Positions 3,856-47,824 are shown, counted from the stretch's first letter. The stretch: 64,000 nucleotides of DNA from Blastococcus sp. (GCA_035296685.1 DATHAK010000220.1:610-64609); one strand, 5' to 3'. Numbers and translations are program-made. The notes: generated from the sequence alone by a model not told the origin.

Positions 3856-4818
3856 TCAGCCCAGCAGTTCGGCCGCCGCCCGCAGCGCCTGCTCGGCGTC
3901 GGCGTCCAGCTCGCGGACGACGTCCGCGGCCGAGCGCTCCCTCGTCACCAGCCCGACGGCCTCGCCGGCGTAGACCGGGCCGAAACGCGGATCACCGGTC
4001 CGCCGGCCTTCGGCGACCAGCCCGCGGGCCTCGGCGTCGTCCACCAGTTCGGTCTCGCGGCCGTGCCAGGCCCGGCTGAAGTCGTTGACCAGCGCCCGTC
4101 CGGGCCAGCGCTCGGGCCACGCGATGCCCTCGCCGACGTCGAACGCGCGGGTCAGCACCGTCTCGTCGCCCGAGGCCGCCCGGACGCGCTCCCGCGCGGC
4201 GGGCTTGTTCAGCCCCTCGGTGCAGGACAGGAAGGCGGTGCCGACCCACACGCCGGCGGCGCCGGCGACCAGCGCCGCGGCCATCGCGCGGCCGGTGGCG
4301 ATCCCGCCGGCGGCCAGCACCGGCCGGTCGGTGAGGGGCAGGACCTCCTGCAGGAGCGGCAGCGTCGCCCGCTGCCCGGTGTGACCGCCCGCCTCGGTGC
4401 CCTGGGCGACGATCACGTCGACCCCCGCGTCCACGACCCGGGCGGCGTCGGCGACGGTGTTCACCTGCGCGGCCACCGCGACCCCCGCGTCGTGCAGCGG
4501 CCCGACGTAGGGCGCCGGGTCGCCGAACGAGACCGACACCAGGCCGGGCCTGGCCGCCAGGGTGGCCTCGAACAGGTCGGGGCGGGTCTCGAGCACCCAG
4601 ATCATCAGGCCGACCCCGAACAGCACGTCCGCCTCGGCGGGGATCGCGCACTGCTCGGTCAGGAACTCGGCCGTCGCGGAGCCGCTGATCCCGATCATCC
4701 CGAGGCCGCCGCCCTCCGACACCGCGCGGGCGAGCGCCCCACCGGCCACGCCCGCCATGGGCGCGCCGATGATCGGGGTGGACAGCTCGAGCCAGCGGGT
4801 CAGCGGTGTCGTGATCAC
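3856..4818 (-). CDS. Nitronate monooxygenase family flavoprotein
   Basis: PIIGAPMAG, VAQGTEAGGH, AAGGIATG, GVWVGTAFL. Confidence 0.92.
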   Translation of the reverse strand: MITTPLTRWLELSTPIIGAPMAGVAGGALARAVSEGGGLGMIGISGSATAEFLTEQCAIPAEADVLFGVGLMIWVLETRPDLFEATLAARPGLVSVSFGDPAPYVGPLHDAGVAVAAQVNTVADAARVVDAGVDVIVAQGTEAGGHTGQRATLPLLQEVLPLTDRPVLAAGGIATGRAMAAALVAGAAGVWVGTAFLSCTEGLNKPAARERVRAASGDETVLTRAFDVGEGIAWPERWPGRALVNDFSRAWHGRETELVDDAEARGLVAEGRRTGDPRFGPVYAGEAVGLVTRERSAADVVRELDADAEQALRAAAELLG

Positions 4819-4904: not shown

Positions 4905-5072
4905 CTACTCGTCCGCCTCCGTCCGGCCGGAGGCGAGCTCGTCCTCGCCGGTGGCGGCCGGATCGTCCTCGGCCGACGCGAGGTCCTCACCCTGGCCGTA
5001 GGCGCCGGGGTCGGCCTGCAGCGTGCGCGGGTCGTTGAGCGGGTCCGGGACGTCGGGGTCGGTCACGGTCAT
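4905..5072 (-). CDS. Small acidic hypothetical protein (55 aa)
   Basis: MTVTDPDVPDPLNDP...RTEADE, the 3' part of track ORF 4905..5273; GC3-rich codons; promoter motif directly upstream. Confidence 0.65.
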   Translation of the reverse strand: MTVTDPDVPDPLNDPRTLQADPGAYGQGEDLASAEDDPAATGEDELASGRTEADE

Positions 5073-18967: not shown

Positions 18968-19100
18968 ACCCGCCGGACGCCGTCGAGCCGGTCCAGCGGA
19001 CCGGACCGGGGACCCACCGCAGCACTGGGGTGCAGCGCTCCCGCGAGCGCCGGGCGATCTCCCGCCCGAACCCGTCAGCTAACCCGGTAGGCGGCTCGTG
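18968..19100 (+). ncRNA. c-di-AMP (ydaO/yuaA) riboswitch
   Basis: GGGGACCCA (19008), TGGGGTG (19026), CCCGAACCCGTCAGCTAACCCGGTAGGC (19065-19092); closing helix CGAGCCG/CGGCTCG; precedes a cell-wall hydrolase as is typical in actinobacteria. Confidence 0.92.
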
Positions 19101-19123
19101 GAAGAAACGGAGTGCCGCCGCGC

Positions 19124-25350: not shown

Positions 25351-26886
25351 ATGGCGACCAAGCAGTTCAAGCTGCCCGACGTCGGTGAGGGTCTGACCGA
25401 GGGCGAGATCCTTCAGTGGCTGGTCGCCGTCGGCGACACGGTCACGGTGAACCAGCCGCTGTGCGAGGTGGAGACGGCGAAGGCTGCCGTGGAGCTGCCC
25501 TCGCCGTGGGCCGGCACCGTCACCGAGCTGCTGTTCGAGGCCGGCACGATGGTCGACGTCGGGACGCCGATCATCACCATCGACATCGGCGGGGAGGGTG
25601 GGGGTGGTCCGGCTGGCGAACCGAGCACCGCACCGCAGCCCGCGCCGGAGGCCGCGTCGGACGAGCCGGCCGCAGGCCTGATCGGCGGCGCGGCCCCGGG
25701 TGGCCGAACGGCCGTGCTGGTCGGCTACGGGCCGCGGAACACCGAGGCCAAGCGCCGGCCCCGCCGTACCGGGGACGCCGTGGCCGCGCGCGCGACCGCA
25801 CCGGCTCCTCCCGCGAGCACCGCCACGGCCACGCTGCCCGGTGCGGACTACGGCTCGGGAGGGTCTGCGCACCCGCCGCTGCTCACCACGGCGCCCGACG
25901 CCGGCACCAAGCCGGTGCGGCACGGCGGCCTGGAGGTGGGCCGGCAGGCGGAGGCGCACGCGCTCAGCGAGGCGGCGGCCCCCGCGGCGGCGGCGCCGCA
26001 CGGCCGGGGCCGGCTGCGCCCGCTGGCCAAGCCGCCGGTGCGCAAGTACGCCAAGGACCTCGGCGTCGACCTGACCACGATCGTCGGCTCGGGGAACGGC
26101 GGCGTCATCACCCGCGCCGACGTCGACGCGGCCGTGTCGGGCGAGGCGGCGGCGCCTGCGGCCCCGGCCCGGGCTCCGCAGGAGACCGGCGGGGAGCAGC
26201 GCATCCCGATCAAGGGCGTCCGCAAGCACACCGCGGCCGCGATGGTGGCCAGCGCCTTCACCGCCCCGCACGTCACCGAGTTCCTGACCGTCGACGTGAC
26301 CCGGATGATGAAACTGCGCACCCGGCTGGCGGCCCGCCCGGAGCTCGCCGGGCTCAAGATCAGCCCGCTGCTGTTCGTGGCCAAGGCGCTGATCCTGGCC
26401 GTGCAGCGGCACCCGATGATCAACAGCTCGTGGGACGAGGCGGCCCAGGAGATCGTGGTCAAGGACTACGTGAACCTCGGCATCGCGGCGGCCACGCCGC
26501 GGGGCCTGGTCGTGCCGAACATCAAGGACGCCGGACGGCTCTCGCTGGCCGAGCTGGCCGGGGCGCTCGCCGACCTGACCGCCACCGCCCGGGAGGGGAA
26601 GACGTTCCCCGCCGACATGACCGGCGGCACGATCACGATCACCAACGTGGGCGTGTTCGGCGTCGACACCGGCACCCCGATCCTCAACCCGGGGGAGTCG
26701 GCGATCCTGGCGTTCGGCGCGATCCGCGAGATGCCCTGGGTGCACAAGGGGAAGATCGTGCCGCGGCAGGTGACGCAACTGGCCCTCTCGTTCGACCACC
26801 GGATCGTCGACGGCGAGCTCGGGTCGCGGTTCCTGGCCGACGTCGGCGCCCTCCTGCACGACCCGGGGACGGCGCTGGCCTTCTGA
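25351..26886 (+). CDS. pdhC: Dihydrolipoamide acyltransferase E2
   Basis: Lipoyl domain EVETAKAAVELPSP, E3-binding AKPPVRKYA, catalytic SFDHRIVDG. Confidence 0.96.
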   Translation: MATKQFKLPDVGEGLTEGEILQWLVAVGDTVTVNQPLCEVETAKAAVELPSPWAGTVTELLFEAGTMVDVGTPIITIDIGGEGGGGPAGEPSTAPQPAPEAASDEPAAGLIGGAAPGGRTAVLVGYGPRNTEAKRRPRRTGDAVAARATAPAPPASTATATLPGADYGSGGSAHPPLLTTAPDAGTKPVRHGGLEVGRQAEAHALSEAAAPAAAAPHGRGRLRPLAKPPVRKYAKDLGVDLTTIVGSGNGGVITRADVDAAVSGEAAAPAAPARAPQETGGEQRIPIKGVRKHTAAAMVASAFTAPHVTEFLTVDVTRMMKLRTRLAARPELAGLKISPLLFVAKALILAVQRHPMINSSWDEAAQEIVVKDYVNLGIAAATPRGLVVPNIKDAGRLSLAELAGALADLTATAREGKTFPADMTGGTITITNVGVFGVDTGTPILNPGESAILAFGAIREMPWVHKGKIVPRQVTQLALSFDHRIVDGELGSRFLADVGALLHDPGTALAF

Positions 26887-26887
26887 G

Positions 26888-26942
26888 AGGACCCTCATGC
26901 TCCCCACCACTCGCAGGCTCGCGGCGGGCCCCTGCATGAGGG
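26888..26942 (+). repeat. Structured ~55 bp intergenic repeat, copy D
   Basis: AGGA-CCCTCATGC-TCCCCACCAC-TCGCAGGCTC-GCGGCGGGCCCCT-GCATGAGGG (9 bp perfect outer stem). Confidence 0.88.
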
Positions 26943-26946
26943 CCAC

Positions 26947-28119
26947 GTGACCGAGCTCGGCCGGCTGCTGGACTTCGCGGAGCGCTCCCGCCTGCCACAG
27001 GGCGGCTTCGGCTACCTCGGGGACGACGGCCGGGTGCTGCCGGACCGGCCGGTCGAGACTTGGATCGTGGCGCGGATGACGCACGTCTTCGGGCTGGCCA
27101 CGCTGCTGGGCCGGCTGGGAGCGGACGAACTGGTCCGGCACGGCATCGAGGCGCTGACGACAGGACCGCTGCACGACGCCGAGCACGGTGGCTGGCGGGC
27201 GAGCACCGAGGACGACGCCAAGACCGCCTACGTCCACGCCTTCGTGCTGCTGGCCGCCTCGACGGCCACGACGGCCGGCGATCCCGGCGCCCTCGCGCTC
27301 CTCAACGAGGCGCTGGGACTCTGGGAGACCTGGTTCTGGGACGACGAGACGGGGATGGCCGTCGAGGAGTGGGACCGCACGTGGTCCCGCCTCGACGACT
27401 ACCGGGGCGTCAACGCGAACATGCACGGCGTCGAGGCCTCCCTCGCCGCCGCCGACGCCCTCGAGGCGACCGATCCGGCGGTCGCCTGGGACCTGCGGGC
27501 CCAGGCGCTGCGGACCACCGAGCGGGTGCTGCACGGCTGGGCCCGCCAGCGGGACTGGCGCCTGCCCGAGCACTACACCTCAGGCTGGGAGCCGTTGCCC
27601 GAGCACAACCGCGAGCGCCCGGCCGATCCCTTCCGTCCGTTCGGCGTGACGATCGGGCACCAGTTCGAGTGGGCGCGGCTGGCCCTCCACGTCCGCGCGG
27701 TCGCCGCCGATCCCCCGGCCTGGCTGCTCGACGACGCCGTGGGCATGTTCGACGCCGCAGCCGAACGGGGCTGGGCGGCCGACGGGCAGGAGGGCTTCCC
27801 CTACACCCTCGACTGGGACGACCGTCCGGTCGTCGGCGCCCGCATGCACTGGGTGCTCTGCGAGGCGATCGCCGCCGCGGCCGTGCTCGCCCGCTCGACC
27901 CGCGAGGACCGGTACCGCGAACTGGCCGACCGGTGGCTGGCGCACGGGGAGGCGCACTTCGCCGACCCGGCCACCGGAAGCTGGCACCACGAGCTCACCC
28001 CGACCGGCGACCTGGGCACCGGCACGTGGGCGGGACAGCCCGACGCCTACCACCTCGCCCAGATGCTGCTGCTCGACGGCCGGCCGGTCCGGGGCAGCGT
28101 CGCCGCGGCCCTGCGGTGA
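26947..28119 (+). CDS. AGE-family sugar epimerase/isomerase (YihS/mannose isomerase-like)
   Basis: ARMTHVF, YVHAFVLLA, YRGVNANMH, TIGHQFEW, RMHWV.CEA, SWHHEL, DAYH. Confidence 0.9.
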   Translation: MTELGRLLDFAERSRLPQGGFGYLGDDGRVLPDRPVETWIVARMTHVFGLATLLGRLGADELVRHGIEALTTGPLHDAEHGGWRASTEDDAKTAYVHAFVLLAASTATTAGDPGALALLNEALGLWETWFWDDETGMAVEEWDRTWSRLDDYRGVNANMHGVEASLAAADALEATDPAVAWDLRAQALRTTERVLHGWARQRDWRLPEHYTSGWEPLPEHNRERPADPFRPFGVTIGHQFEWARLALHVRAVAADPPAWLLDDAVGMFDAAAERGWAADGQEGFPYTLDWDDRPVVGARMHWVLCEAIAAAAVLARSTREDRYRELADRWLAHGEAHFADPATGSWHHELTPTGDLGTGTWAGQPDAYHLAQMLLLDGRPVRGSVAAALR

Positions 28120-31961: not shown

Positions 31962-32222
31962 TTATTCGGCGTCGAGGTCCTCGGCGACCATGCCGGCGAT
32001 CTGGTCCAGCACCGTCTGGTCCTCGCTGGTGACCACCACCTCCGCGCCCTGCTTGGCGCCGAGGGTCATGATCATGAGTGGGGACCCGGCGTCGATGGGC
32101 GCGCCCCCCGGGGTGTGCAGGGTGACCGGGACCCCGGCCTTCCCCACGGCCTCGGCGATCAGGGCGGCGGGACGGGCGTGCAACCCGACCCGGGAGCCGA
32201 CGGTGACGGTCTGACTGGGCAT
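31962..32222 (-). CDS. ptsH: PTS phosphocarrier HPr
   Basis: GLHARPAA (His15) motif. Confidence 0.96.
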   Translation of the reverse strand: MPSQTVTVGSRVGLHARPAALIAEAVGKAGVPVTLHTPGGAPIDAGSPLMIMTLGAKQGAEVVVTSEDQTVLDQIAGMVAEDLDAE

Positions 32223-39430: not shown

Positions 39431-40291
39431 TCAGGCCAGCTCGTTCGTTACGTCGAGGAGTCGCTGCCGGAGGACGGCACCGCGCTCGGCGAACGTCCGC
39501 TGGGCGGTCACGTACTCCGCCTTGCCCTCGGGCGTCTCGATCGCGACCGGGGCGTAGCCGTGGTCGCGGAGGTCGTAGGGGGAGGCCCGCATGTCCAGCT
39601 CCCGGATCTCCGCCGCGAGCTCGAGGCAGTCGGCCACCAGCTCACCCGGCGTGGCCGGGCTGAGCTTGTAGGCCCACTTGTAGAGGTCCATGCCGGCGTG
39701 CAGGCAGCCCGGTTGCTCGAGCGCGGGCTGCGTCTCCCGCGTCGGCTGCACACGGTTGCGGCCCACCGCCGCCGGTGTAAAGAACCGGAAGGCGTCGTAG
39801 TGCGTGCACCGGATCGGGTGCGCCTCGACGACGGCGTCGGTGCCCTCGGGGCCCAGCCGGAGCGGCACCGCGTGCCGGGTCTGCCGGTCGCGGTAGACCA
39901 TCGCCCACTCGTGCAGGCCGAAGCAGCCGGTGGACGGCGGCCGGGACGCCGTGGCGGCGAGCAGCCGGCGGGCGAACGCGACGGTGTCGCGGCGGTCGGC
40001 CAGGAACGCCGGGACGTCCAGGCGCACCGTGCCGTCGGCGTCGGCCCGGTACCAGCGCCATCCCTCGTGCGGCGCGGGCCCGGCCAGGGCGACGCCCGGA
40101 CCCGGGTGCCAGCGGCGCAACCGGCCGGGGGTCTCCGAGTAGTAGGTGAAGAGGAAGTCGAGCACCGGGTGCGGTTGACCCCGCCGCCGACGCTCCAGGT
40201 GCGGCGTCACCCAGCGGTCGACGCGCGCCTCGTGTGCCGCGGCCCGCGCCGTCCACTCCTCCACCGCGAGGCGGGTCAGGACGCCGGGCAT
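39431..40291 (-). CDS. Conserved actinobacterial protein (often labelled 3-methyladenine DNA glycosylase)
   Basis: HPVLDFLFTYY, GCFGLHEWAMVYR, CTHYDAFRFF, QPGCLHAGMDLYKW, DMRASPYDL; leaderless TACGCT -10. Confidence 0.85.
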   Translation of the reverse strand: MPGVLTRLAVEEWTARAAAHEARVDRWVTPHLERRRRGQPHPVLDFLFTYYSETPGRLRRWHPGPGVALAGPAPHEGWRWYRADADGTVRLDVPAFLADRRDTVAFARRLLAATASRPPSTGCFGLHEWAMVYRDRQTRHAVPLRLGPEGTDAVVEAHPIRCTHYDAFRFFTPAAVGRNRVQPTRETQPALEQPGCLHAGMDLYKWAYKLSPATPGELVADCLELAAEIRELDMRASPYDLRDHGYAPVAIETPEGKAEYVTAQRTFAERGAVLRQRLLDVTNELA

Positions 40292-43776: not shown

Positions 43777-45621
43777 TCAGAAACAACGCTCGTCGACCTC
43801 CATGAGGGCGTTGTCGGTGTTCTCGACGATCGCGCGCTCCGAGGACAGCCGCGGCAGCACCTGGGTGGCGAAGAAGCGGGTGGCGGCCAGCTTGCCCTCG
43901 TAGAAGAACCGGTCCTTCTCGCTGACCTCGCCACCGAGCGCGGCCAACGCGACCTCCGACTGCCGGATGAGCAGCCACCCGGTGATGAGGTCACCGGTCG
44001 CCAGCAGCAACCGGCTCGTGTTCTGCGCGACCTTGTACAGCGACGTCATGTCCTGCTGCGCCTCGGTCAGGTGGCCGAACATCGCGGTGAGCATGCCCTG
44101 GACGTCGGAGAGAGCGGTCGCCAGCAGCGCGCGCTCCTCCTTGAGCCGCCCGTTGCCCGCCTCGGCGTCGATCGTCGACTGGATCTGCTCGGCGATCCAG
44201 GTCAGCGCCACCCCGCCGTCCTTGACGATCTTGCGGAAGAAGAAGTCCTGCCCCTGGATCGCCGTGGTGCCCTCGTAGAGGGTGTCGATCTTGGAGTCGC
44301 GGATGTACTGCTCGATCGGGTAGTCCTGCAGGTAACCCGAGCCGCCGAGGGTCTGCAGCGACTCGGCGGTCAGCAGCTGGGTGGCGCGCTCGGACCCGAA
44401 GCCCTTCACGATGGGCAGCAGCAGGTCGTTGACCCGCTCGGCCAGCTTCGCCTCCTCGCTCTCGCCCTCGCCGGCCGCCTCCGCCTCGACGACCCGGTCC
44501 CGGAAGCTCGCCGCGTAGAGGTAGAGCGCGCGCATGCCCTCGGCGTAGGCCTTCTGGACCATCAGCGAGCGGCGGACGTCGGGGTGGTGGCTGATCGTCA
44601 CCCGCGGCGCGTCCTTGGACGTCGCGGTCAGGTCGGCGCCCTGCACCCGCTCCTTCGCGTAGGCCAGGGCGACCTGGTAGCCGGCCGACAGCGTGGCGAT
44701 GGCCTTGGCCCCGACGAACATGCGGGCGTGCTCGATGACCTTGAACATCTGGGCGATGCCGTCGTGCACCTCGCCGACCAGCCAGCCCTGCGCGGGCACG
44801 TCGGTCGCGCCGAAGGTGAGCTCGCAGGTGGTGGAGACCTTGAGGCCCATCTTCTTCTCGACGTTGGTGACGTAGACGCCGTTGCGCTCGCCGAGCTCAC
44901 CGGTCTCGAGGTCGACGTGGAACTTGGGGACGACGAACAGCGACAGGCCCTTGGTGCCGGCCCTCGCACGCTCGGGGCGGGCCAGCACCAGGTGGATGAT
45001 GTTGTCGTAGAGGTCGTGCTCGGCCGAGGTGATGAACCGCTTCACCCCGGTGATGTGCCAGGAGCCGTCGTCCTGCTGCACGGCCTTGGTGAGGCCGGCC
45101 CCCACGTCGGAGCCCGCGTCGGGCTCGGTGAGCACCATCGTGGCGCCCCAGCCCTTCTCCAGCATGAGCTCGGCGAGCTTCTTCTGCTCCGGGGTGCCGA
45201 GGTCGTCGAGGACGGCGGCGAACGCGGCGCCCGACCCGTACATGAAGACGGCCGGGTTCGCGCCCAGCACCATCTCGAACGCCGCCCACGTCAGGGCGTG
45301 CGGGGCGCCGAACCCGCCCAGGTGCTCGGGGACGTCCAGCCGCCACCACTCGCCGTCGTTGATCGCCTGCATCGACTTCTTGAACGACTCGGGGAGGGTC
45401 ACCGAGTGCGTGGGCGGGTCGAAGACCGGCGGGTTGCGGTCGGCGTCGGTGAAGGACGCCGCGATCGGCCCCTCGGCCAGCTTGCGGATCTCGGCGAGCA
45501 CACCGCGGGCCGTGTCGGCGTCCATCTGCTCGAACGGCCCGGTGCCGAACTTGTCCTTGGTGTCCAGGAACTCGAAGAGGTTGAACTCGAGGTCCCGGAG
45601 GTTGGCCGTGTAGTGGCTCAT
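43777..45621 (-). CDS. fadE5: Acyl-CoA dehydrogenase, FadE5-like
   Basis: [57 protein letters not shown]. Confidence 0.93.
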
Positions 45622-47523: not shown

Positions 47524-47658
47524 GTCAGGGATGGTGCACCACGTCCGTGACGGAGCAGTTCGCGGCACGCCGGAATGGTTGCTCTGGGTGACGAGAGGCG
47601 CGGGGGTGGCCCGGGACGCCGGGGGACCCTGGGGCCGCTGTGACGACGGAGAGTGAGG

Positions 47659-47688
47659 AAGGGCCCCGTCGCCTCGGGACGGGGCCTT
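47659..47688 (-). terminator. Terminator hairpin after the 45-aa ORF
   Basis: GGCCCCGTC-N7-GACGGGGCC stem starting at the TAA stop. Confidence 0.75.
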
Positions 47689-47824
47689 AGTTGCGGCGGA
47701 CGCGGCGGGGGTTGGCCAGCATGCGCGCGACGGTGGCGACGGCGGCCTCGGGGGAGCGGGACTCCTCGGTCTGGGTCGAGGCGGTGTCCTCGGAAACGCG
47801 TGCGTCGTGCTGGGGGTTCGCCAT
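47687..47824 (-). CDS. Small hypothetical protein (45 aa), absent from the ORF track
   Basis: MANPQHDARVSEDTASTQTEESRSPEAAVATVARMLANPRRVRRN*; own promoter motif and terminator; GC3-rich codons. Confidence 0.7.
   Translation of the reverse strand: MANPQHDARVSEDTASTQTEESRSPEAAVATVARMLANPRRVRRN

Follow-up and report, generated by a model that had tools for sequence, protein, structure and literature searches.

What kind of element lies directly behind a stop codon at 26889-26944 in a 64,000-nucleotide stretch of Blastococcus sp. DNA (the window), and what brought it there? A sequence-only reading had noticed four related hairpins in the window and took them for repetitive extragenic palindrome (REP)-like elements under structural selection, possibly mobile and possibly acting as a regulatory RNA or a promoter module. 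The evidence from their own genome and from related genomes indicates that the element is probably a lineage-specific, non-autonomous interspersed palindromic repeat that inserts at or just after pre-existing stop codons, and also into resident copies of itself. In kind it belongs with REPs, bacterial interspersed mosaic elements (BIMEs) and the mycobacterial 'Tuberculosis Rho-independent terminator' (TRIT). All four copies are present when the window is searched with the covariance model R1, and the same model detects no further full-length copy in the 64 kb. Copy boundaries are given here from the GGAC foot to the closing CC.

26889-26944, + strand: copy A, foot to closing CC (R1 score 77.2 bits)
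26887-26944, + strand: copy A including its tail GA (26887-26888); foot GGA at 26889-26891
26911-26920, + strand: near-invariant 10-nt loop of copy A, TCGCAGGCTC
4891-4837, - strand: copy B (51 bits), outer stem CCCCGCCC/GGACGGGG with one mismatch
32315-32259, - strand: copy C (67.8 bits), with its own unused tail GTAGAA at 32321-32316
40362-40307, - strand: copy D (57.4 bits), with the tail ACAA at 40366-40363

A dispersed family of palindromic repeats

The source genome is a draft assembly of 4.51 Mb in 276 contigs (73% G+C, 98.5% complete). A search of this genome with nhmmer, seeded from pattern matches, gave 128 matches, and R1 gave at least 123. These matches constitute a repeat family of about 125 copies, far above chance, and bear out the description of the element as a REP-like dispersed palindrome with a conserved foot. 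The unit is about 60-66 nt long. From 5' to 3' it consists of a purine-rich tail, the GGAC foot, an outer stem of 8-9 bp, about three unpaired C residues, an inner stem of 8 bp, the loop TCGC-nn-GCTC, return arms separated by a 5-nt bulge (nCCCT or CCTCT) and a closing CC. The usual tails are CTGA followed by RRAA, (A)GTAGAA, xTGAA and TAA. The conserved head is RAAGGAC rather than the REP-type GTAG/CGTC, GTAGAA is found in 12 of 98 tails, and the Shine-Dalgarno-like string AAGGA stands at the foot in 79 of 98 copies. The 10-nt core that appeared near-invariant in the window reads TCGCA[ACG]GCTC in 86 of the 98 clean copies. There are two old subfamilies, common to all genera. Type 1 has the inner stem CCCACCGC/GCGGCGGG, and type 2 has the inner stem CTCACCCC/GGGGCGAG and the outer stem CCCCGTCC. 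The linker GTTCCAGCACGTCAC continues from about 15 copies, and several copies are composite or have a duplicated foot.

In the predicted fold of copy A, the outer stem is formed by 26892-26900 and 26934-26942, the GG of the foot (26889-26890) pairs with the closing CC (26943-26944), and the inner stem (26903-26910 with 26921-26928) contains two A·C mismatches. The outer stems of copies A-D differ in sequence and stay complementary, and the compensatory change that this suggested extends to the whole family. Standard pairs occupy 90.1% of the stem cells in 98 copies of the own genome, compared with 40-50% when the partners are slid by 1-3 columns. Two-sided changes occur in 13 of the 17 stem pairs (216 cells), and none of 500 shuffles reached the observed pairing or covariation values. 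A cross-genus set of 71 copies from Geodermatophilus, Blastococcus, Modestobacter and Trujillonella is 91% paired with 12 of 17 pairs changed on both sides, and the consensus of the loop, the mismatch and the internal loops is identical in the four genera.

The covariation largely separates subfamilies that are found in every genus, so the cells cannot be counted as separate events. The two arms of a palindrome can also stay complementary at the DNA level with no function in RNA, and compensatory change alone is no proof of selection on RNA. The stem changes may reflect a need for the palindrome itself, in propagation and/or as an RNA hairpin, and may partly trace to the old subfamilies. One inner-stem position is an A·C mismatch in 72-78 of the 98 copies and is repaired to G-C (12-13 copies) or A-T (6 copies) in the rest. 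Over the whole inner stem there are 94 A·C and 6 G·U; the opposite strand would read the former as G·U wobbles. Neither the state of the mismatch nor the subfamily is related to orientation or context.

Copies abut stop codons

Genes in the own genome were called with a codon-usage scorer (4,347 genes, 88% coding), and the 109 intergenic copies were assigned to the three types of spacer.

Co-directional spacers: 74 of 109 copies (49 sense, 25 antisense), 68% versus about 67% of genome spacers
Convergent spacers: 27 of 109 copies, 25% versus 16.6% of genome spacers
Divergent spacers: 8 of 109 copies, 7% versus 16.6% of genome spacers

Convergent spacers are enriched and divergent spacers depleted relative to the background (p = 0.007). 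The gene upstream is on the same strand for 76 of the 109 copies. Of 62 same-strand upstream stops, 51 are separated from GGAC by 0-6 nt, with a peak at 4 nt (28 copies). In co-directional spacers, 27 of 35 sense copies start within 2 nt of the stop, where uniform placement expects 2.8-7.2 and the highest of 20,000 simulations was 15. Uniform insertion within spacers is excluded because the simulations never reach the observed stop proximity. Orientation (49 sense versus 25 antisense) and stop distance are thus both non-random, as the window copies had suggested. The stricter claim that the repeat always follows a stop, in sense orientation and between co-directional genes, is correct for copies A-D, which start 2, 13, 9 and 4 nt after the stop, respectively. 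It does not extend to the genome, where 33 of 109 copies lack a same-strand upstream gene and 25 of the 74 copies in co-directional spacers are antisense.

The element also contributes stops of its own. By hand count, about 24 of 31 copies whose tail does not coincide with a gene end nevertheless have a stop triplet in it, and TAA stops made from a T and the element's AA account for 6 of 51 stops versus 2% genome-wide (p = 5e-4). About 25 copies have a 3' end that abuts, at 0-9 nt, the stop of a gene on the opposite strand (TCA on the element strand). The 5' flanks of the copies are conserved and the 3' flanks are not.

Copies are spread over about 90 contigs among core genes, and no functional theme is common to the flanking genes. 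Several are located within operons, as in ilvB-[sense copy]-ilvN-[antisense copy]-ilvC, purN-H (24 nt before purN), the site downstream of ftsZ and PTS-ptsH (PTS, phosphotransferase system). Copies inside conserved operons must be transcribed through and are therefore part of the mRNA. A further 15 copies are 'inside' called open reading frames (e.g. C23:57076-57137, C78:41788-41849 and C235:8144-8204). Some of the frames that read into or through copies may be true in-frame extensions, and others may be start or stop miscalls.

Insertion at pre-existing stops in related genomes

Orthologous sites were compared in congeners that are about 80% identical, with the closest relatives at about 80-89%, and the junctions are therefore approximate. 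At six of six loci (copy A and sites on contigs C174, C48, C244, C125 and C241) the stop is at the same codon with or without the element. The copy A site reads TTCTGA-GA[element]AC-GTG here and TTCTGAcATG at the empty site in G007 (TTCTGAcATGACC), and the stop of the upstream E2 acyltransferase gene is unchanged in relatives without copy A. The C48 spacer has a copy in the same orientation in G007 and in the opposite orientation in G003, and is empty in four other genomes. The C244 spacer, between convergent stops (TGA-CGC-TCA), is filled in two species and empty in two; in a third species the copy is inverted and its stem differs. The TGA that originally ended the gene has changed to TGG in G003, where the gene now ends at a TAA built with the element's AA.

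The region downstream of ftsZ has a more complex history. The ftsZ stop is directly followed by the element or a mosaic of it in 16 of 16 Geodermatophilus genomes examined. In three species a resident type-1 copy holds, in or beside its loop, a type-2 copy complete with tail (GGAGAA, GTAGAA or GAGGAGAA). Tandem arrays of 3' half-units joined by the linker are found in three species, and internal deletions in three. The conserved GTG of the next gene lies 3-7 nt past the mosaic in most species (L085 5904-7166 and orthologues). The entire intergenic spacer is thus repeat-derived. In G106 the loop that received the nested copy is free of TAG, and this copy arrives with TAGAA; the tail, including its stop triplet, therefore travels with the element. 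These comparisons reveal recurrent independent insertion in either orientation, replacement and decay, which identifies a mobile or recombining repeat and not a fixed regulatory site.

Duplicated gene ends were seen at two sites. The G007 orthologue of the C125 locus reads GCCTTCTGAG-TGCAT-GCCTTCTGAGAAGGGGGCC, in which the end of the gene is duplicated and then followed by an apparent element that has lost its interior, its foot running directly into the closing GGGGCC. In G012 (L007), the insertion that arose independently at the copy A locus also comes after a duplicated gene end of this kind.

The repeat is confined to Geodermatophilaceae

When one genome per species was scanned for the exact pattern, the records came nearly only from Geodermatophilus, Blastococcus, Modestobacter and Trujillonella, with two stray records of doubtful origin. 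R1 matched 31 of 41 Geodermatophilaceae genomes, representing 11 of 15 genera, and its counts per genome are often lower bounds (at least 127). Outside Geodermatophilaceae, the same model matched none of 38 genomes, drawn from 18 further families of the order. The repeat is confined to Geodermatophilaceae. Within the family, four genera with small genomes (g16, g20, g24 and g26) are free of copies and the congener G057, a complete genome, is essentially so; counts in their relatives range from 50 to above 127. In Geodermatophilus maliterrae (L083 2100-2396), one full copy is accompanied by four inner-hairpin units (model positions 18-56) that are repeated in tandem with a period of about 62 nt.

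The repeat in mRNA

Co-transcribed copies likely act as a stable stem-loop at the end of a cistron. The interrupted duplex of about 20 bp is similar to that of TRIT, which favors a role, or a side effect, in processing or stability at cistron ends. The stem-loop might be an RNase III-type processing site, as proposed for TRIT, or a barrier to 3' exonucleases, and a stem that starts 15 nt or less from the stop may perturb the terminating ribosome. REPs stabilize upstream mRNA, and Liang, Rudd and Deutscher reportedly found in 2015 that Escherichia coli REPs no more than 15 nt from a stop reduce translation. If the processing role is true, the repeat would be a widespread determinant of differential expression within the operons of these stress-tolerant actinobacteria.

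The element is not a promoter, and in the sense orientation it is not a canonical terminator. Scans for sigma-70 promoters and simple terminators around copies A, C and D detected nothing at the copies. The sequence-only reading had placed a leaderless -10 hexamer 7-8 nt past copies A and C, and had considered a promoter module. The next start after copy A is a GTG at 26947, only 2 nt past the hairpin, and it aligns with an ATG or GTG start in element-free relatives. After copy C, the ATG of ptsH is preceded by an ordinary Shine-Dalgarno sequence, GAGGAAGAGGA. Both the leaderless starts and the promoter module are set aside on these grounds.

Some observations weigh against a mobile repeat that serves as an RNA stem-loop. 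Every effect at the RNA level, on processing as on stability, is one that we infer. The conserved A·C is on the commonly transcribed strand and the G·U on the other, which points to a requirement at the level of DNA or the bottom strand better than to a sense-RNA helix, or alternatively to a recognized bulge. Copies downstream of ftsZ are kept at the same site across many species, which could mean a local function and not selfish persistence. No mobilizing enzyme was found, so 'mobile' rests on insertion polymorphism between species that are about 80-89% identical.

Terminator, cassette and translational models

The copies are unlikely to be orientation-dependent intrinsic terminators. According to this model a G+C-rich hairpin on the bottom strand, followed by the U-rich tail UCCUUUCUCA, stops the transcription of genes that enter the element from its 3' side. 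The complement of the tail is T-rich despite the 73% G+C of the genome, and the copies whose 3' ends abut opposite-strand stops and the excess in convergent spacers are consistent with such a function; TRIT was also first proposed as a terminator (PMC3152330). However, two thirds of the copies in co-directional spacers (49 versus 25) are in the orientation free of a U-tract, and antisense copies lie inside operons a few bases before the next start (ilvN-ilvC, and the copy 24 nt before purN). A canonical intrinsic terminator was rejected: there is no 7-9 nt U-tract after the sense hairpin, the antisense orientation has only the interrupted UCCUUUCU, and a simple terminator scan does not flag the copies. 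Mycobacterial RNA polymerase requires a true U-tract (PMC3993855), and TRIT overlaps just 2-4% of the termination sites mapped in Mycobacterium tuberculosis by Term-seq (bioRxiv 10.1101/2022.06.01.494293).

It is about as doubtful that the repeat is a self-contained 'cistron-end cassette', made up of a portable stop triplet, a Shine-Dalgarno-like foot and a hairpin, that is delivered to stops by a mechanism new for bacterial repeats. Delivery would proceed without a Y1 HUH enzyme, TnpB, or inverted repeats with target duplication. It might use T(G/A)(A/G) microhomology or a protein specific to the family that recognizes the A·C mismatch and the invariant loop. G057 and the four genera would then lack the repeat because they have lost this delivery factor.

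A portable translational module is less probable than either. In this model the tail provides a stop and the AAGGA site, and the hairpin brings AAGGA near the next start so that translational coupling survives the insertion. The model draws on the AAGGA in 79 of 98 feet, the stops built from the element's AA and the nested copy that carries TAGAA into a loop without one. At copy A and downstream of ftsZ, moreover, the start lies 2-7 nt past the hairpin with no other Shine-Dalgarno sequence evident. The hairpin and the next start are, however, separated by a median of 43 nt, and by 9 nt or less in no more than about 5 of 50 sense copies. A ribosome site bridged by the hairpin is conceivable at a few loci, such as copy A and the site downstream of ftsZ, but cannot be general. 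Half of the copies are antisense or face a convergent gene and serve no start, and the predicted fold places the GG of the foot in base pairs. The AAGGA match is one of sequence likeness, as the 3' end of the 16S RNA is absent from the draft assembly.

Mobilizing agent

A REP-type system is improbable as the source of the copies. REPs are associated with REP-associated tyrosine transposases (RAYTs), and here a domesticated IS200-like Y1 HUH transposase would nick beside the foot and spread the hairpins as single-stranded DNA. The conserved foot beside a variable stem, the imperfect palindrome with its conserved mismatch and the BIME-like mosaics resemble such a system, and the asymmetry between A·C and G·U suggests that one DNA strand matters. 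The profile for the enzyme itself, Y1_Tnp (PF01797; RAYT/IS200), had no match in the own genome or in any of the 41 Geodermatophilaceae genomes, whereas 6 of 14 controls were positive. TnpB occurs in only 2 of the 41 family genomes and shows no correlation with the element. No transposase is flanked by copies. All 22 genes found between copies less than 3.5 kb apart, including those between inverted copies, are housekeeping genes, among them ilvN, purH, purN, murA, lysS, lsr2 and atpC. A truncated copy downstream of glmS was considered as the end of a longer element and leads nowhere.

A strong lagging-strand bias is typical of single-strand transposition. In a closed congener genome the copies number 66 on the + strand and 50 on the - strand and are mixed in each tenth of the chromosome, so such a bias is absent. 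The conserved head also reads RAAGGAC and not GTAG/CGTC. We infer that the moving agent is not a Y1 HUH enzyme of the RAYT/IS200 type, and the mobilization by such a nuclease that the sequence-only reading had envisaged is not borne out. Two other classes of mobile element were tried and rejected. Miniature inverted-repeat transposable elements (MITEs) do not fit because no direct repeat indicative of a target duplication flanks the copies, no longer element with the same ends was found and the 3' flank, unlike the 5' flank, is not conserved. IS200/IS605 ends, in the manner of palindrome-associated transposable elements (PATE-like), do not fit because there is no TnpA, TnpB is present in 2 of 41 genomes, the junctions are variable and there is no strand bias.

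The simplest account of the association with stops would combine two factors. One is a preference for T(G/A)(A/G)-like sites, or microhomology with the element's tail. The other is selection: as 88% of the genome is coding, T(G/A)(A/G)-like sites where an insertion does no harm would mostly be real stop codons.

A stationary, vertically inherited cis-regulatory RNA or protein-binding site, selected at each locus, is very improbable: the loop, mismatch and internal-loop consensus common to four genera and the occupied site downstream of ftsZ in 16 of 16 Geodermatophilus genomes fit it, but orthologous sites are empty in many congeners, species differ in the subfamily or the orientation found in one and the same spacer, nested copies, tandem half-units and internal deletions are often seen, G057 is essentially copy-free and the flanking genes lack a common theme.

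Comparison with known repeats

The closest described analogue of this interspersed repeat is TRIT, which was reported from Mycobacterium by Gardner et al. in 2011 as a set of 147 palindromic copies with a very narrow stop distance and a restricted lineage (PMC3152330). A putative two-site cleavage pattern in TRIT has been attributed to RNase III (PMC13714241). Both repeats are conserved palindromic hairpins (about 50 nt in TRIT) with more than 100 dispersed copies in one actinobacterial lineage of the same order. Both have a narrow stop distance with the stop in or at the 5' edge of the motif, a likeness of behavior and not a proof of membership, and no mobilizing enzyme is known for either. 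The present repeat differs from TRIT, which was compared by description only, in its restriction to Geodermatophilaceae, its purine tail and AAGGAC foot, its two-tier stem and its invariant 10-nt loop. Homology with TRIT is not suggested by R1, which finds nothing in the 38 genomes of 18 other families, a set in which the presence of Mycobacterium was unchecked. As a second, independent stop-hugging hairpin repeat in Mycobacteriales, the family would make the phenomenon comparative and not an oddity of a single genus. The contrast with the 10 of 41 family genomes that are repeat-free, including one congener, could identify the mobilizing or binding factor that is likewise missing for TRIT.

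The repeat resembles the REPs and BIMEs of Enterobacteria and Pseudomonas in being a short imperfect palindrome whose foot is conserved and whose stem varies, in having many extragenic copies, mostly at gene 3' ends and inside operons, and in forming mosaics of alternating orientation with linkers (GTTCCAGCACGTCAC here). It differs in that no Y1 (RAYT) gene is found in 41 genomes, the conserved head is not GTAG/CGTC, the coupling to stops is much tighter and the tail contains a stop triplet. Correia elements of Neisseria, enterobacterial repetitive intergenic consensus (ERIC) sequences and other MITE-like repeats are similarly small and non-autonomous, form long hairpins in mRNA and show insertion polymorphism between close species, and Correia elements are RNase III substrates (as summarized in PMC13714241). 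Those repeats end in inverted repeats of a fixed sequence and duplicate their target (TA in the case of Correia), whereas the present copies show no evident duplication, are conserved in the 5' but not the 3' flank, and vary in most of the stem.

The attC site of integrons is an imperfect palindrome of similar size that lies right after a stop and conserves structure over sequence. Its conserved unpaired bases give strand choice, and the Geodermatophilaceae repeat likewise has conserved unpaired bases. The attC sites are, however, arranged in tandem cassette arrays beside an integrase and have RYYYAAC/GTTRRRY cores. Identity with attC was rejected because about 90 contigs carry copies, which lie among core genes (ftsZ, ilvBNC and purNH), and the cores are absent; an integrase was not searched for.

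No copy matches Rfam 15 at the gathering threshold, and the best permissive match has 13.9 bits (E = 4.5). No description of the family was found in the literature on Geodermatophilaceae or Geodermatophilus repeats. The family is apparently undescribed, as the sequence-only reading had supposed. The more novel question is that of a repeat without a recognizable transposase that repeatedly lands on stop codons. In practice the covariance model can serve to mask some 125 repeats in each genome when Geodermatophilaceae are annotated, which would correct gene ends and starts that read into copies and flag assembly breaks driven by the repeat.

Neighboring genes and fragments in the window

The genes and minor features around the four copies are as follows.

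25351-26886, + strand: 2-oxoacid dehydrogenase E2 acyltransferase gene upstream of copy A; its stop TGA at 26884-26886 is 2 nt 5' of the copy A GGAC
26947-28119, + strand: N-acetylglucosamine (GlcNAc) 2-epimerase-family gene downstream of copy A, with a GTG start 2 nt past the hairpin
4905-5072, - strand: 55-aa acidic open reading frame, neighbor of copy B
4907-4896, - strand: TAG stop and duplicated foot GGACCCC (4902-4896), upstream of copy B
3856-4818, - strand: nitronate monooxygenase-like gene, neighbor of copy B
32327-32325, - strand: stop TGA of the PTS EIIABC gene, 9 nt 5' of the copy C GGAC
32258-32245, - strand: diverged 3' linker motif GTTACAGACATCTC after copy C (compare the family linker GTTCCAGCACGTCAC)
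31962-32222, - strand: ptsH/HPr gene, neighbor of copy C
40369-40367, - strand: stop TGA of the GAF/PucR regulator gene, 4 nt 5' of the copy D GGAC
39431-40291, - strand: gene for a 286-aa protein, neighbor of copy D
47652-47689, + strand: putative mini-derivative TGAGGAAGG-GCCCCGTC-GCCTCG-GGACGGGGCC (R1 18.2 bits, E 0.04)

The stop upstream of copy B (TAG, 4907-4905) is 13 nt 5' of GGAC, with the duplicated foot in between; the same kind of foot duplication is present in other copies of the family. The sequence at 47652-47689 is a weak match and is tentatively assigned as an internally deleted derivative of the repeat that has only the tail and a type-2 outer stem. At 44938-44997 on the + strand, CCCTCGCACGCTCGGGGCGGGCC corresponds to the loop followed by the 3' arm of the inner stem and scores 21 bits with R1 (E 0.0075), either by chance or as a decayed fragment. 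The sole Rfam match at gathering level in the window is a cyclic di-AMP riboswitch (ydaO/yuaA leader, RF00379) at 18976-19108 on the + strand, which scores 60.8 bits over the full model length.

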